Of a stretch of 64,000 bases of DNA, positions 1,396-6,563 are shown in pieces. Under the pieces are notes generated by a model. It saw only the letters and a list, made by a program, of their open reading frames with translations, did no database searches and was not told where the DNA came from. This stretch comes from Anaerosacchariphilus polymeriproducens (lineage in GTDB: Bacteria > Bacillota > Clostridia > Lachnospirales > Lachnospiraceae). Numbering within the stretch: position 1 is the first letter of the stretch; each line of letters begins with the position of its first letter. Both the position numbers and the translations under genes were made by a program. Location of the stretch: NCBI RefSeq assembly GCF_003363435.1, contig NZ_QRCT01000049.1, forward strand, positions 357,403 to 421,402. Reading direction: 5' to 3'.

Positions 1396-2862
1396 CTACA
1401 AATCTAAATCTAATAATTTCATCAATTCATCTTTCAAAGTTACAATTTCCCCATCAATCTTGTTAATTCTTTCCATAATAACATTCGGGGGATCATATTC
1501 CACTCTTTCATACTCAATTTCCTTATATTTATTAATAGACAAATCATACCCATTGTTTTTGATTTCCTCTACCGGAACAAAGAAACTCTGCTCGGTTCGT
1601 TTCCTATCATTTTCATTCTCTAAATGATTGAATCTTTCTATAATATCAGGAATATCATTTGCTTCAATGGCTTGTCTCTTATCATCTAAGCTATATCCAT
1701 CTGCCTTCATGTCGTAGAACCAAACCTTGTCTGTTCCGCCTGCTCCTGTCTTTGTAAAGATAAGAATCGCGGTAGAAACGCCGGCATATGGCTTGAAAAC
1801 TCCGGAAGGCATGGAGATAACTGCATCTAATTTATTATTATTTACAATTTCCTGCCGAATCTGCTGATGAGCCTTGGAACTTCCGAAAAGAACTCCGTCC
1901 GGTACGATAGTCGCACTTCTTCCGCCATTTTTTAACACCCTAAGATTAAGAGCCAAGAACAATAATTCTGTTTTCTTAGTCTTGGTAACTTTTAATAAAT
2001 CTGCACTTACTGCTTCGTAGTCTAAACTGCCTTTAAAAGGCGGATTCGCTAATACAAGTGTGTATTTTACATGATCGGTATTTTGCTCTGATAAGCTATC
2101 CTTGTATTCGATTTTAGGATTCTCTACCCCGTGAAGCATCATATTCATAGCCCCGATACGCAGCATTGTCCTATCCATATCAAAACCATGGAACATATCG
2201 TTGTTAAAATGTTCTCTCAACCCTGCATTCAAAAATAAATCCGCATGATTCGTTCTTAAATAGTTCTGTGATGCTACTAAAAATCCCGCACTTCCCATGG
2301 CTGGATCTACGATTACATCGCTTGGAGTCGGTTTCATTAACTGAACCATCATGTCAATGATATGTCTTGGTGTTCGAAACTGTCCGTTCGTTCCTGCTGT
2401 TGAAACTTTTGAAAGAAGATACTCATACAAATCACCTTTTGCATCTGTATCAACTAGAACTAAACTGTCAATTCCATCTACTATCTTGGATAGCATGGCT
2501 GGTGTAGGGATTTTGAAAATGGCATCTCCCATATACTTCGAATAAGCAGAGTCACCATCCTGATGTAGGTTTTTAATAAATGGGAATACCCCATCTAAAA
2601 CTATTTTGTATATTTCCTCTGCAGAACCTAAACTCTTAAATTTATTCCAACGATACTGCTGACATTCTTCTGGAAATATCCCAACATACGGTACTCCCAG
2701 GAAGTTCGCTTCACTCTCTTTTGTAGATTCTACTTCATCTAATTGTTTGATAAATAATAAATATGTAAATTGTTCTATTACTTCTAACGGATTCGTAATT
2801 CCTCCTGTCCAAAACGTCTCCCAAATTCGGTCAATTTTATTTTTCATCTCTCCTGTAATCAT
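1396..2862 (-). CDS. hsdM: Type I restriction-modification N6-adenine DNA methyltransferase HsdM
   Basis: 488 aa. Carries the N6_Mtase NPPF motif (VLANPPFKGSLD) and the SAM-binding region (VDPAMGSAGFLV), with HsdM N-terminal domain features. Confidence 0.9.
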   Translation of the reverse strand: MITGEMKNKIDRIWETFWTGGITNPLEVIEQFTYLLFIKQLDEVESTKESEANFLGVPYVGIFPEECQQYRWNKFKSLGSAEEIYKIVLDGVFPFIKNLHQDGDSAYSKYMGDAIFKIPTPAMLSKIVDGIDSLVLVDTDAKGDLYEYLLSKVSTAGTNGQFRTPRHIIDMMVQLMKPTPSDVIVDPAMGSAGFLVASQNYLRTNHADLFLNAGLREHFNNDMFHGFDMDRTMLRIGAMNMMLHGVENPKIEYKDSLSEQNTDHVKYTLVLANPPFKGSLDYEAVSADLLKVTKTKKTELLFLALNLRVLKNGGRSATIVPDGVLFGSSKAHQQIRQEIVNNNKLDAVISMPSGVFKPYAGVSTAILIFTKTGAGGTDKVWFYDMKADGYSLDDKRQAIEANDIPDIIERFNHLENENDRKRTEQSFFVPVEEIKNNGYDLSINKYKEIEYERVEYDPPNVIMERINKIDGEIVTLKDELMKLLDLDL

Positions 2863-2980
2863 TTTCTTCGCTCCTTAAATATAATGAAATAATTATAGCA
2901 AACGCAAATAATTATTACTACAAAATATAACAAAGTTTTTATATTTAGATTATACTATCTGAAAACAAAGCTACTTTTTA

Positions 2981-5242
2981 TCAATCCGAAGTATAATAAT
3001 AAACGATTATCTCCTGCACATTCTTAGGATAAATAAACACCTCATAAAAAGTACCGGATTTACTTATCTTTTCAACTATTTTAATTCCTTTTTCTAGCCC
3101 CTCTTTTGTAAGCATCGTTTTTCCAAAACCTTCTATCTGCTTTTCTTTTAAAAGCCCCTCTTTAAACAGAAACTCGAGAATACTCTTGTTCGTAACCTGT
3201 TTCGTGGTCAGTGGATCGCGCAGATTATTCAGTTCCTCTTTTATCTCCGTTATATAATATTTGTCAGCATAGGTAAAGTTTTGGGCTTGTTCTGAAGTAA
3301 GATGAAATTCTTCTTTTCTATTCCGCTTACTAACAGGCTTCTCTTCCTTCGCCAAATCTTTAACATCCTCTTGCGCTTCGGATTCCAAACTTATGACACG
3401 TCCAGGATTCTCAGAGGTAAACTGCTCTATTTCAGAAATAAAACGTTGACCATATTTCTCATATTTATTTTCACCCACACCAGAGACCTGAAGCATTTCC
3501 ATCTTTGTATGCGGAGTTCTTACACACATATCAATTAAAGTCTTATCACTGAAAATGATATACGGAGGCATTTTCTCTTCCCTTGCAATTTCAAGTCTAA
3601 GCTGGCGAAGTTTTTCAAATAATTCAAATCCAGCAGATGTAAGTGCATCCGTACTCTTTTGTCTGGTTTTATTCGTATTACTGCTTATCGTATCCTTCTC
3701 TTCAATATGTACCTTAACTGTTACCTTTGTCGATTCATCATGAAGTCTTGCTACCATATTTCCTATTTTAAGAAGACTATATTTATCATCTGTCTGATTC
3801 AAATATCCTTCCTGAATCATTTGAGTAATCAGTAACTTCAGCATTGATTCAGTACTATCCTTAAGAACGCCATAGGACTTATACTCCATGGTTCCAAATT
3901 CTTTCAACTTCGCTCTTCTTGCACCAAGAAGCGTACCAACAACAACATTTAATCCATATCTTCCTTTGGTCTCTGTGACACAGTTAATAATCCACTTGGC
4001 TTCCTTGGTCATGTCAATCTCTGTAAATTCCTTTTTACAATTGGCGCAATCTCCACAAGGTTGATTTGTCTTTTCTCCAAAATATTGAAGAATGAAATTT
4101 CTAAGACAGTTTGTCGTGTGACAGTAGTTTTCCATAACATGAAGTCTTTGCACATCCCTCTGCCGTATCAACTCTGCATCCTCAAAATCAATATCAGAAA
4201 GTTCCTTATTATCCAAAAGAAATTTATTTATCATGATATCCTGAGCAGAAAATAGCAAAATACATTGCGCATCTTCCCCATCTCTCCCTGCTCTTCCGGC
4301 TTCCTGATAATAATTTTCCATGCTCTGCGGCATATTATAATGAATGACAAATCGGACATTAGACTTATCAATTCCCATGCCAAAAGCATTTGTCGCTACA
4401 ATGATTGGACTTCTATCATAAATAAAAGCATCCTGATTATCTTTTCTTGCCTCAGAATTTAATCCAGCATGATACTTTGTTACACAAACTCCATTTTTGA
4501 ACAAAAGCTCATGCATTTTTTCTACATTCTTTCTCGTAGCACAATAAATAATACCGCTATCATTTGAATGCTCCTTAATATAATTTAAAATGAAGTTATC
4601 TTTTCTACTAATATTTTCCACCTGATAATAGAGGTTTTCCCTGTCAAATCCTGTTACCAAAACATTTGGACTTTTTAGACCTAAAATACATACAATGTCC
4701 TCTTTTACTTCTTTTGTAGCTGTTGCTGTAAATGCACTTATGATTGGTCGATATGAAAGAAAATTTACAAAATCAATAATCTTTAAGTAACTTGGCCTAA
4801 AATCTTGTCCCCATTGCGAAATGCAATGTGCTTCATCTATTGTAATCATAGAAATCTCGGTATTAGATGCAAACCATCTAAATTCGTTGCTCTCAAGACG
4901 TTCCGGTGCAACATAGATTATTTTGTACAGCCCTTGTGATGCATATTGGAGTGCTTTTGAAATTTGTACATCGGTAAGGGAACTATTAATAAAAGCAGCA
5001 TGGATTCCAGCTTCATTTAATGCCTTTACCTGATCTTGCATAAGAGAAATTAATGGCGAAATGACAAGAGTGATTCCTGGCAGCATTAAAGCCGGAACTT
5101 GGTAACAAATAGATTTTCCTGCTCCTGTCGGCATAATTGCCAGCGCATCTCTTTCTTCTAAAATAGTATCTATCATTTCTCTCTGACCGGCTCGAAATAA
5201 ATCGTAACCAAAATATTTTTTTAAAATTTCTAATGGATTCAT
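2981..5242 (-). CDS. recQ: ATP-dependent DNA helicase RecQ (with roughly 150-aa C-terminal extension)
   Basis: 753 aa. Walker A (MPTGAGKS), DEAH box (TIDEAHCISQWGQDFR), helicase C motifs, RQC Zn-binding cysteines (CGDCANC) and an HRDC-like region, then an uncharacterised lysine-rich tail. Confidence 0.9.
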   Translation of the reverse strand: MNPLEILKKYFGYDLFRAGQREMIDTILEERDALAIMPTGAGKSICYQVPALMLPGITLVISPLISLMQDQVKALNEAGIHAAFINSSLTDVQISKALQYASQGLYKIIYVAPERLESNEFRWFASNTEISMITIDEAHCISQWGQDFRPSYLKIIDFVNFLSYRPIISAFTATATKEVKEDIVCILGLKSPNVLVTGFDRENLYYQVENISRKDNFILNYIKEHSNDSGIIYCATRKNVEKMHELLFKNGVCVTKYHAGLNSEARKDNQDAFIYDRSPIIVATNAFGMGIDKSNVRFVIHYNMPQSMENYYQEAGRAGRDGEDAQCILLFSAQDIMINKFLLDNKELSDIDFEDAELIRQRDVQRLHVMENYCHTTNCLRNFILQYFGEKTNQPCGDCANCKKEFTEIDMTKEAKWIINCVTETKGRYGLNVVVGTLLGARRAKLKEFGTMEYKSYGVLKDSTESMLKLLITQMIQEGYLNQTDDKYSLLKIGNMVARLHDESTKVTVKVHIEEKDTISSNTNKTRQKSTDALTSAGFELFEKLRQLRLEIAREEKMPPYIIFSDKTLIDMCVRTPHTKMEMLQVSGVGENKYEKYGQRFISEIEQFTSENPGRVISLESEAQEDVKDLAKEEKPVSKRNRKEEFHLTSEQAQNFTYADKYYITEIKEELNNLRDPLTTKQVTNKSILEFLFKEGLLKEKQIEGFGKTMLTKEGLEKGIKIVEKISKSGTFYEVFIYPKNVQEIIVYYYTSD

Positions 5243-5455
5243 AATATTTATACACCTCTCTATTTGAAGAATAAACTAAATTTGTAATAACATTTTTACT
5301 GATAAAAATTGATTTTCTAGATTTTACGCCCTTTATGTGTAAGTATAATATAATTGATATTTGGTTTCAATCAGATGGGAATTAAAGTGCCATTTTAAAA
5401 ATTAAGTTGGCCTATGATAAGATAATAAGAACTAAAAAGATAATGTGAAAAGATG

Positions 5456-5484
5456 TTGCGAACTGACGTTCTGCTTGCTATAAT
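5456..5484 (+). promoter_or_regulatory. Sigma-A-type promoter (TTGCGA -17 bp- TATAAT) driving the small-peptide unit
   Basis: Near-consensus -35 TTGCGA (5456..5461), a 17-nt spacer and consensus -10 TATAAT (5479..5484). It sits about 125 nt upstream of the peptide ATG. Confidence 0.5.
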
Positions 5485-5609
5485 AAAAATATGGGTGCTG
5501 CCATTTACGGTACGCGGTTAGTCCTTCTACAGAGGGACTGTGACCCTCTGACTACATAGAAATCCCCAGATTTGTTCTGTTGGAAATCTTGCTTAAGGAG
5601 GGGATGCCA

Positions 5610-5705
5610 ATGTTGACACTTGAAGGTCTGATTGCAGTAATCAGCTTATGCTTGACCTGCTTCGGACTTGGATATGCAATAGGAAGCAATAAAACACAAA
5701 AATAA
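5610..5705 (+). CDS. 31-aa hydrophobic single-TM peptide (type I toxin / holin-like-toxin-like small membrane protein)
   Basis: MLTLEGLIAVISLCLTCFGLGYAIGSNKTQK. Strong SD AAGGAGGGG lies 8 nt upstream. There is a dedicated promoter, a structured roughly 110-nt leader with a perfect 7-bp hairpin at 5530..5550, and a 9-bp-stem terminator overlapping the stop codon. Missed by the ORF track because it is under 60 aa. Confidence 0.55.
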   Translation: MLTLEGLIAVISLCLTCFGLGYAIGSNKTQK

Positions 5706-5745
5706 CCGCCCTGTCTACAAAACTAAACGGTTATTTTGTAATAAT
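5700..5745 (+). terminator. Rho-independent terminator of the small-peptide unit
   Basis: Perfect 9-bp stem AAATAACCG (5700..5708) / CGGTTATTT (5728..5736) with a 19-nt loop, followed by a T-rich tract. Confidence 0.5.
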
Positions 5746-5879
5746 TAAAATTTGTGGACTAACCATCTATCGGTAGCACCTTTTATATTTATCATAATAT
5801 CATGCTAATGAAAATATGTCAATTTCGTAATTTCTATAATTGGTCTAATTTAATCTTTAAACCTTATTTAATAAGAGTA

Positions 5880-6563
5880 TCAAAATTCTATCCAATAATT
5901 CCTATGCGGTTCAATGATCACATTTCCATAGAATTCTTTTATTTGAGCTACTGTAACCGGACTTATTTCTCTTTTTGAAGGATTATATTTTTCTGCATTT
6001 TCCTTTGTAAGAAAACACTTTACAGCTTCATATTCCTGACCATTTTCTACTTCTCTCCTCATTATTTCGATTCCAAATGTATCTCCTTTATTCATATTTG
6101 GTAATAACAACGTTCCAATAATATATACCGTCTTTTCTTTTAAAAGGTCATATGCTTTATCATTGTTCATGTTATTTCTAGCTGCTGCATACATAATACA
6201 AAAACTGTCAATTACATCTTTTAATAGCAGAAGATCTTCTTTGGTAATTATAAGTGCACGTGGTAAAAGTCCACTAATAATAAGTACTTGATTAGATTCT
6301 TGTTGAATAACATTATCAACAACTATTCCAAGTACCGTCTGAGCATAAGTATATTGTTTCTTATTCTTCTCCATTAGTTCTTTCACTGTCTGATTCAATG
6401 AGTCAGGAGTAATGCACATATATACAACTTTATCAATGGATATTGTATCGTTATCCATAATTACAGCCACCTCGCGGTCAAGCTGTTCCATAAATCCCAA
6501 CTGTTCCAATCTTACATTTGACTGGAATATTCTTTCGATCTGTTTTTTATTACTTCCAAACAT
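5880..6563 (-). CDS. Hypothetical protein (possibly SseB-like)
   Basis: 227-aa ORF with good coding character. No diagnostic motif recognised. Weak resemblance to SseB-family proteins of Firmicutes. Confidence 0.4.
   Translation of the reverse strand: MFGSNKKQIERIFQSNVRLEQLGFMEQLDREVAVIMDNDTISIDKVVYMCITPDSLNQTVKELMEKNKKQYTYAQTVLGIVVDNVIQQESNQVLIISGLLPRALIITKEDLLLLKDVIDSFCIMYAAARNNMNNDKAYDLLKEKTVYIIGTLLLPNMNKGDTFGIEIMRREVENGQEYEAVKCFLTKENAEKYNPSKREISPVTVAQIKEFYGNVIIEPHRNYWIEF

Follow-up and report, generated by a model that had tools for sequence, protein, structure and literature searches.

What is encoded in the short interval between recQ and the next gene of Anaerosacchariphilus polymeriproducens? 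We analysed a stretch of 64,000 nucleotides (nt) of contig NZ_QRCT01000049.1 (positions 357,403 to 421,402 of the forward strand), hereafter called the window; coordinates given without a locus name count from its first letter. A reading of the letters alone (the original prediction) had placed in this interval, at 5456-5745, an autonomous unit of promoter, structured leader, 31-residue hydrophobic peptide and terminator, and had proposed it as a candidate type I toxin locus. We found that the small-peptide unit spans 5456-5822. Its start at 5456 stands, and its end moves about 80 nt past 5745, because the unit also takes in a conserved element on the 3' side, at 5756-5781, and beyond it, at 5794-5822, a convergent promoter. 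The locus is probably a type I toxin–antitoxin-like module made of two convergent genes, one for the messenger RNA (mRNA) of the peptide and one for an antisense small RNA (sRNA), with the toxicity of the peptide being a prediction. The region 5492-5783 scores 283 bits against a profile built from 50 homologous loci, and this signal is far above chance. No further copies of the module were found elsewhere in the window.

The peptide gene and its family

The open reading frame (ORF) MLTLEGLIAVISLCLTCFGLGYAIGSNKTQK is located on the plus strand at 5610-5705, with its ATG at 5610 and its TAA at 5703-5705, and its 31-residue product is the candidate toxin. The peptide has one hydrophobic helix (core residues 7-25), carries a GxGxxxG-like motif and ends in a C-terminal tail that is polar and basic. 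It is thus a small (<60 residues) hydrophobic peptide with a predicted transmembrane helix, encoded on a predicted dedicated short mRNA with its own promoter, as is usual in the type I class. This promoter lies on the plus strand at 5456..5484 and has 10/12 consensus matches, with the -35 hexamer TTGCGA (5456-5461), a 17-nt spacer and an extended -10 element TGcTATAAT (5476-5484). The transcription start site is inferred at ~5491, which gives a leader of ~118 nt up to the ATG. A strong Shine-Dalgarno (SD) sequence, AAGGAGGGG, is found at 5595-5603 on the plus strand, 6 nt before the ATG. Promoter, structured leader, SD and ORF were therefore all where the original prediction had seen them.

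The original prediction had proposed a search for relatives of the peptide in Lachnospiraceae and other Clostridia, and these proved to be numerous. Using back-translated patterns, we found 488 relatives in species-representative genomes, nearly all of them in Lachnospiraceae, including the genera Blautia, Coprococcus, Roseburia, Acetatifactor, Eisenbergiella and Faecalicatena. A search with a 41-residue extended frame returned 101 clusters (90% identity) of near-identical peptides of 31-34 residues, none of which is functionally named, and a profile search of 1.84 billion representatives returned 481 clusters at 50% identity. Eight of the 31 residues are invariant (M1, T3, E5, G6, A9, G21, Y22 and G25), and six further residues are near-invariant. 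In 66 distinct homologous ORFs, the codon-position entropy is 0.47/0.09/1.17 bits, and the ratio of nonsynonymous to synonymous divergence (dN/dS) is ~0.08 at a dS of ~1.3, with dN biased downward by the gathering of homologs through peptide similarity. The ORF is a genuine peptide gene under strong purifying selection. Saturated synonymous sites beside an almost fixed peptide mean that selection on RNA structure alone is insufficient as an explanation. The locus is thus not a mere sRNA in which only the RNA structure is conserved, an outcome that the original prediction had envisaged.

Known families offered no counterpart. None of 36 family members matched Pfam, and none reached its Hol-Tox family even at E = 10; the peptide had no match in NCBIfam, and PHROGs returned nothing significant. 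Nothing significant was found among PDB sequences either (the top match is a 29-residue bacteriocin, E = 0.36), and the peptide sequence was not found in the searched literature. Exact-sequence look-ups of the peptide and of the RecQ encoded in the window gave no record. The kinship with Fst/Hol-Tox peptides suggested earlier did not hold, since the 36 members have no Pfam or NCBIfam match and hhalign gave only 0.7% against BsrG and 2.5% against TxpA, with the BsrG and TxpA sequences entered by hand. We also considered a leaderless bacteriocin and dropped it, because no immunity or export gene is conserved in the vicinity, the PDB score is insignificant and the SD is masked.

An end-to-end helix in the mRNA

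We then investigated the RNA around the ORF, using an alignment of 75 distinct loci from -160 to +230 around the ATG; the pair statistics come from a 50-sequence alignment (A2). In the 75-locus alignment, a nearly invariant element, GGRCTARCCGTCTATCGGYAGYRCC, lies downstream of the stem-loop at the stop codon, and its complement is found in the leader, within the first 32 nt. In the window, this 3' element is GGACTAACCATCTATC GGTAGCACCT (5756-5781, plus strand), with a T-rich run (5781-5789) next to it, and its partner on the same strand is at 5493..5524. The helix formed by the two, named P1, has 26 base pairs (bp). It is composed of P1a (GGGTGCTGCC, 5493-5502, with 5772-5781) and P1b (GGTACGCGGTTAGTCC, 5509-5524, with 5756-5771), which are separated by a 6-nt bulge on the 5' side (5503-5508).

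P1 pairs are formed in 96-98% of the cells of A2, and nine of them covary, with compensatory changes such as GC 23 / AU 15, AU 27 / GC 15 and UA 35 / CG 12. The covariation score was reached by 0/500 shuffles, and pairing falls to 32-50% when the partner is slid by 1-3 columns. RNAalifold predicts P1 unprompted. Among the non-Watson-Crick combinations read on the plus strand, G·U occurs 219 times versus 28 for A·C, and two G·U pairs are invariant. A constraint at the DNA level, or one on simple sequence identity of the two ends, would give the two classes equally, so this excess indicates that P1 is selected in the plus-strand RNA, and the mRNA must then reach ~5785, past the stop-codon stem-loop. 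These observations point to a toxin mRNA of ~290 nt (~5491-5785) that would be closed end to end by P1. In several homologs (L021, L023, L078 and others), a canonical plus-strand terminator, made of a GC stem of 10-12 bp and a U-run, comes after the 3' element, and this terminator-bearing subfamily confirms the predicted extension of the mRNA beyond the stem-loop. In the window copy, P1 is directly followed by TTTTATATTT.

The stop-codon stem-loop and a probable convergent antisense RNA gene

The stem-loop at the stop codon (named T; 5700-5736, on both strands) overlaps the TAA and has a 9-bp stem, formed by AAATAACCG (5700-5708) and CGGTTATTT (5728-5736), and a loop of 19 nt, which is why our terminator scan left it uncalled. 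The stem covaries in A2 (GC 31 / AU 17; CG 41 / UA 3). The original prediction had taken T for the terminator of the mRNA; the stem is real, and its role as the mRNA end is disfavoured by the conserved P1 partner downstream of T and by a bias of the U-tract towards the other strand. At least five U are found in the 8 nt after the T stem in 44/50 loci on the minus strand versus 17/50 on the plus strand, and the terminator scan of locus L021 called a minus-strand terminator inside T. In the window, the minus-strand U-tract is encoded by the K-T-Q-K codons (5691-5702) together with the stop codon. This coding of the U-tract would explain why these codons and the stop are conserved at the DNA level and why the homologs all read 'K*PP' across the stop. 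T is likely to be both an internal hairpin of the mRNA and the intrinsic terminator of an antisense sRNA.

Another possible partner of T is found in the leader. The segment GGCGGTTA (5513-5520) is complementary to the 5' arm of T (5703-5710); this pairing is possible in 98% of the sequences, and one pair appears as U-A, U-G and C-G variants. No compensatory change was found for this pairing. It could serve as an antiterminator, allowing the mRNA to run on past T.

No antisense promoter had been confirmed by eye in the original prediction. We found one on the minus strand at 5822..5794, and it is the best-conserved promoter of the locus. It consists of the -35 hexamer TTGACA (5822-5817), a 17-nt spacer and an extended -10 element TGaTATTAT (5802-5794); with 11/12 consensus matches it is the top site of the region in our promoter scan, and its transcription start site is expected at ~5786-5788. 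The same arrangement (a perfect TTGACA, a 17-nt spacer, TG and TAnnAT) recurs in ~60/73 loci that have the 3' element, and its -10 ends at a fixed distance of 15-17 nt from that element. In the terminator-bearing subfamily, the promoter is 42-47 nt from the 3' element, so that the terminator hairpin would be included in the predicted minus-strand transcript. The plus-strand promoter is conserved in position as well, with its -10 ending 10 nt before the leader sequence GGGTGCT, and has a weak -35 (TTGnnn; for example, TTGTAG and TTGATT). The median consensus match is 10/12 for the minus-strand promoter versus 8/12 for the plus-strand promoter, these being values of consensus match and not of measured strength.

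A transcript starting at ~5787 would read GGUGCUACCGAUAGAUGGUUAGUCC as a hairpin, then an A/U spacer, T and finally UUAUUUUUGUGUUUU. From the promoter, the terminator and their conservation, we infer a gene for an antisense sRNA of ~95 nt (5692..5787, minus strand) with a 5' hairpin GGUGCUACC..GGUUAGUCC, an A/U-rich spacer, the terminator T and a U-tract. Perfect complementarity of the predicted sRNA extends over the last ~95 nt of the mRNA, namely the P1 3' strand, the spacer, T and the final 4-5 codons. At the sequence level, the locus thus has what type I systems have, an antisense sRNA gene that possesses its own promoter and is complementary to the toxin mRNA. We rejected a par-like pairing between the 5' ends of the sRNA and the mRNA, because the two ends have the same sense (the repeats are inverted in the DNA). 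Rfam returned no meaningful match for 5243-5900 of the window (E up to 10) and none for five homologous loci (E up to 1).

Alternative structures in the leader

The bases of the P1 5' strand can also form local hairpins on the plus strand. One is H1 (5498-5502 with 5509-5513), and the other is H2, a 9-bp alternative helix (5519-5527 with 5532-5540) whose 5' strand is the same GGUUAGUCC that makes P1b. H2 overlaps the 5' arm of a third hairpin, H3 (5530..5550, plus strand), which is the perfect 7-bp leader hairpin already recognised in the original prediction. H3 pairs CAGAGGG (5530-5536) with CCCTCTG (5544-5550) across the invariant loop ACTGTGA, and the 5544-5549 part of its 3' arm is an anti-SD that can pair with the SD. 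Next on the plus strand come an invariant, single-stranded linker, ACTACATAGAAA (5551-5562), a variable hairpin (H4, 5563-5584) and the spacer to the SD.

H3 is paired in 98% of cases and has three covarying pairs; CAGAGGG/CCCUCUG alternates with CGGAGGG/CCCUCCG at 24:21, that is, AU:GC at one pair. The H3 loop tolerates insertions of ~60 nt in homologs. H1 and H2 are both 98% pairable, and the anti-SD:SD pairing is possible in 85% of the homologs. In locus L041, all three strands are changed together (GUCUCUC / GGGAGAC / CUCCCUG) and both H2 and H3 are kept. The outer pairs of H4 covary (UA 29 / CG 19; CG 29 / UA 14) around an invariant ATAGA core.

Two states of the leader are predicted. In the consensus fold (state A), P1 and H3 are formed, the anti-SD is locked in H3 and the SD is free. 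In the minimum free energy (MFE) fold of an RNA truncated at 5745 (state B), H1 and H2 are formed and the anti-SD CCCUCU pairs with the SD. In partition-function folding of 59 homologs, the mean probability that the SD is unpaired was 0.25 with the RNA at full length, and it was 0.08 both with the sRNA target region masked and in the nascent RNA. The SD is more accessible in the full-length than in the 3'-masked RNA in 47/59 loci. We read the leader as a putative three-part switch, and the folding leans slightly towards a polarity in which the full-length mRNA would be on and the nascent or sRNA-bound mRNA would be off.

Two further structural features were seen. The invariant H3 loop ACUGUGA contains UGUG (5539-5542), which can pair with CACA (5695-5698) just before the stop codon; this site is CACA in 44/50 and CGCA in 5/50 sequences. 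A contact between the H3 loop and the 3' region is possible, and the invariance of the loop precludes a covariation signal. RNAalifold also predicts two helices inside the ORF (~5645-5685; columns 164-170/201-207 and 180-183/191-194 of A2), with compensatory changes at one pair (UA 28 / AU 8).

Genomic distribution of the module

There are no conserved neighbours of the module: 390 flanking ORFs from 81 loci are mostly singletons, and the largest flanking clusters are a generic histidine kinase (11/81 loci) and tuf and fusA (nine loci each). Second full copies occur within 3 kilobases in L001 (1139-1411, opposite strand), L021 (2900-3177 and 3420-3700), L023 (2424-2700 and 2898-3176) and L076 (3685-3860), and several genomes have two loci. 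Each copy in L021 has its own two promoters and plus-strand terminator. Decayed copies are also found; some are truncated at the 5' or 3' side, and L037 carries G21R and G25R and has lost the leader. Such varied contexts, duplicates and decayed copies are typical of self-contained addiction-type modules.

Four Blautia loci (L031, L043, L047 and L048; ~2834-3135), three of which are identical in DNA sequence, have an intact ORF and lack both the 3' element and the antisense promoter. All four carry a ~60-nt GC-rich, hairpin-forming insertion in the H3 loop; L059 and L062 have similar insertions, and that of L077 is of a different kind. In L016 (687-768 and 5492-5604) and L018 (5675-5811), by comparison, T, the 3' element and the minus-strand promoter stand beside a different or truncated ORF tail (...VTIIGLVYKISHKK*). 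Such partial modules could represent antitoxin-like genes left as orphans, or else a second family of peptides with the same antisense module.

A diverged full copy, encoding the peptide MLTTELFIAIISLCITCFALGYTIGSKSKK, is found on the megaplasmid of Lachnospira eligens ATCC 27750 (L082 3006-3285, corresponding to about 160158-160437 of NC_012780.1), where it is unannotated and lies between two MATE transporter genes. As this is a cultured type strain, the copy is a convenient one for experimental work. Another diverged full copy is located at the end of a phage-labelled faecal contig. Outside Lachnospiraceae, the module is found in Sharpea azabuensis DSM 18934 (L045), and this copy hardly differs from L044 and L069, two copies from Lachnospiraceae, so that a recent transfer is suggested. 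The module also occurs in metagenome-assembled genomes labelled Muribaculum, Bacteroides and Gastranaerophilales (L028, L031 and L050), labels that may be binning errors.

In the window itself, the module is flanked by recQ (2981-5242, minus strand) and by an ORF of 227 residues (5880-6563, minus strand), and a D-lyxose isomerase gene is also among the neighbours. The 227-residue ORF, which ends just upstream of the antisense promoter, had no significant match in Pfam, NCBIfam or PHROGs. On the other side, recQ adjoins genes of a type I restriction-modification system, one for the specificity subunit (245-1393) and one for the methylase (1396-2862), both on the minus strand.

Proposed mechanism and alternative explanations

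The original reading of the locus as a type I toxin locus is strengthened by the conserved antisense promoter, the purifying selection, the maskable SD and the self-contained behaviour; the parts that did not survive are the Fst/Hol-Tox kinship, T as the mRNA end and the unit boundaries. The module would most likely work as follows. Segments X (5519-5527) and Z (5544-5549, the anti-SD) of the leader would compete for segment Y (5532-5540). During transcription, X would pair with Y in H2, leaving Z free to mask the SD, and translation would be off. Once transcribed, the 3' element would capture the 5' end in P1; with X removed, Y and Z would form H3 and the SD would be exposed. The sRNA, made from the promoter closer to consensus, would take the 3' element first, so that the leader stays SD-masked. 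It could outcompete P1 because the sRNA duplex is perfect, unlike P1 with its bulge and its two invariant G·U pairs. The long sRNA:mRNA duplex would presumably be a substrate of RNase III. If the short-lived sRNA were lost, the peptide would be made and membrane damage would follow. A more novel reading is tentative, and we hold it with less than even confidence: in a widespread new family of gut Lachnospiraceae, the antitoxin would silence the toxin by blocking an activating 5'-3' circularisation of the mRNA, without touching the ribosome binding site (RBS), and the G·U pairs and the bulge would tune the competition. If true, an antitoxin and an mRNA 5' end that compete for one 3' element would be a mechanism undocumented so far.

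Several points weigh against this interpretation. Because H1, H2 and the anti-SD:SD pairing hardly vary, covariation lends them almost no support. In all states, the prediction is of an SD that is mostly paired (0.25 versus 0.08), so that support for the switch polarity is weak. A U-run accompanies T on the plus strand too, and some mRNAs may stop there without forming P1. In the window copy, P1b has two mismatches in its middle (5513/5767 and 5515/5765). The peptide has no match in any known toxin family, and the bias in dN mentioned above counts on the same side. Finally, the Blautia copies keep an intact ORF without the 3' element and the sRNA promoter, and an unguarded potent toxin is hard to reconcile with them, unless P1 is needed for expression.

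An alternative that we consider unlikely, and that fares best among those weighed, is the same two-RNA module with the opposite polarity. As in hok/Sok and aapA1/IsoA1, the closed mRNA would be inert, 3' or 5' processing would activate it, and the sRNA would mainly trigger decay. Long-distance pairing between the 5' and 3' ends is a hallmark of inert full-length hok-type mRNAs, and two features of the folding fit this alternative as well: the SD is mostly paired even in the full-length fold, and the MFE fold of the window copy with P1 still has the anti-SD on the SD. The consensus fold with P1, on the other hand, contains H3, with the anti-SD locked and the SD unpaired, and masking the 3' region lowers SD access in most of the loci folded. 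Moreover, the sRNA overlaps exactly the P1 3' strand and so would open the closed form rather than stabilise it, and the Blautia copies with an intact ORF, no P1 and no sRNA are easier to explain if P1 is activating.

It is less likely still that the peptide is not a toxin and is instead a small membrane protein under antisense control, for example one that regulates a membrane complex or is a subunit of it. The extreme conservation (the eight invariant and six near-invariant residues, including E5 and GxGxxxG) would be more typical of a protein with a specific partner than of a generic membrane disruptor, and yet no conserved neighbouring gene offers itself as that partner. Some copies are found in housekeeping neighbourhoods (tuf, fusA) and no toxin family is matched; against this, tandem duplication, multicopy genomes, decayed copies and the copy on a phage-labelled contig are typical of addiction modules, and a convergent antisense RNA with a masked SD is the standard silencing of toxic peptides (PMC3834814; PMC6563280).

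That the inverted repeats (5493-5524 / 5756-5781) act at the DNA level, as terminal inverted repeats of a mobile element or as a recombination site, with the ORF and hairpins incidental or the unit a non-coding RNA, is suggested by their flanking a short unit in many contexts, sometimes in multiple copies, and is highly improbable given the G·U excess with two invariant G·U pairs that argues for selection on RNA, two conserved promoters lying outside the repeats, the clear codon-position signature of the ORF and the lack of a transposase associated with the unit.

Comparison with known type I systems

The closest layout among known systems is that of bsrG/SR4 in B. subtilis. There, an mRNA of ~294 nt encodes a 38-residue peptide, and the antitoxin, which is transcribed from a stronger promoter, is complementary to the 3' end of the mRNA (PMC3834814). 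The first contact is made through the terminator loop of the antitoxin, and binding extends a helix that masks the SD (PMC3834814). Like bsrG/SR4 and txpA/RatA, the module has convergent genes overlapping at their 3' ends (here the inferred overlap is 5692-5787), an mRNA of ~290 nt and a single-helix peptide of 31-38 residues with a basic C-terminus. As in bsrG/SR4, an antitoxin at the 3' end would alter the access of a distant SD, and a terminator stem-loop lies inside the overlap, both features being predictions here. The antitoxin promoter is the stronger one in bsrG/SR4, whereas here it is closer to consensus than the toxin promoter. TxpA and BsrG themselves have no detectable sequence relationship with the peptide, which fails the Hol-Tox profile test, and the sRNA is predicted at ~95 nt versus ~180 nt for SR4. 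Set against bsrG, the module stands out by a 26-bp helix that would close the mRNA between its 5' and 3' ends and whose 3' strand would be bound by the antitoxin; we know of no such report for bsrG. The hosts also differ: the module is found in Lachnospiraceae, at loci outside recognisable prophages, in contrast to the B. subtilis systems.

With hok/Sok of plasmid R1 and aapA1/IsoA1 of Helicobacter pylori, the module shares a conserved 5'-3' long-distance interaction that closes the mRNA (here P1) and metastable or alternative leader hairpins (here putative) on which access to the SD depends, both while the mRNA is transcribed and afterwards. In hok/Sok and aapA1/IsoA1, the antitoxin pairs with the 5' initiation region and the closed form is inert until 3' trimming. 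Here, the antisense promoter is placed past the 3' end of the mRNA, and the predicted antisense RNA overlaps that end only, not the initiation region. The peptides and hosts of the two systems are unrelated to those of the module.

The fst/RNAII system (par) of Enterococcus faecalis plasmid pAD1 also has convergent small RNAs with a shared bidirectional terminator, a peptide of ~33 residues and a 5' structure that masks the RBS. Direct DNA repeats make the par RNAs complementary at the 5' ends as well (PMC3834814), unlike the RNAs of the module, in which the repeats are inverted and the RNA 5' ends have the same sense. There is no Pfam match to Fst, and of the features that define the Fst/Ldr family and par-type loci, only the shared terminator is in common.

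Nearer in taxonomy are the CD2517.1/RCd8 module and the prophage module CD0956.2/RCd10 of C. difficile, each with a small hydrophobic toxin that has a charged C-terminal tail and a cis-antisense RNA (PMC6563280). A 2019 review of clostridial systems lists the C. difficile modules and TxpA- and Fst-like hits in C. bolteae, and no other Lachnospiraceae family (PMC6563280). The C. difficile modules share with ours the class Clostridia, a hydrophobic peptide with a charged tail and a cis-antisense RNA (here predicted). They differ in having no sequence similarity to it and in being located by CRISPR arrays or in prophages.

Implications

Most work on type I toxin–antitoxin systems has dealt with Enterobacteria, Bacilli, Helicobacter and C. 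difficile, and our literature searches for type I systems in Lachnospiraceae and for small proteins of the gut gave only unrelated work. Judged from its genes, the family described here looks like a previously undescribed type I family that is common in gut Lachnospiraceae. What is new is the end-to-end pairing, the predicted antisense partner and the large peptide family; the module is not surprising in kind, having a layout like that of bsrG/SR4. A new twist may lie in the proposed competition for the 3' end of the mRNA, between the antitoxin and the 5' end of the same mRNA.

The family is abundant, as the 488 matches in species-representative genomes indicate, and yet it is unannotated, even in the complete genome of L. 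eligens ATCC 27750. The module therefore flags a missing gene pair for annotation pipelines. The many diverged copies are also the reason why the mRNA architecture has covariation support, and the module lends itself well to studies of the control that an antisense RNA bound at the 3' end has over a ribosome binding site far away. Being compact, it is also a candidate from which tools for plasmid stabilisation or kill switches in gut Clostridia could be made. Lachnospiraceae are an under-studied group and one of the dominant families of the human and animal gut, and this family of modules would fill a taxonomic gap in the known distribution of type I systems.

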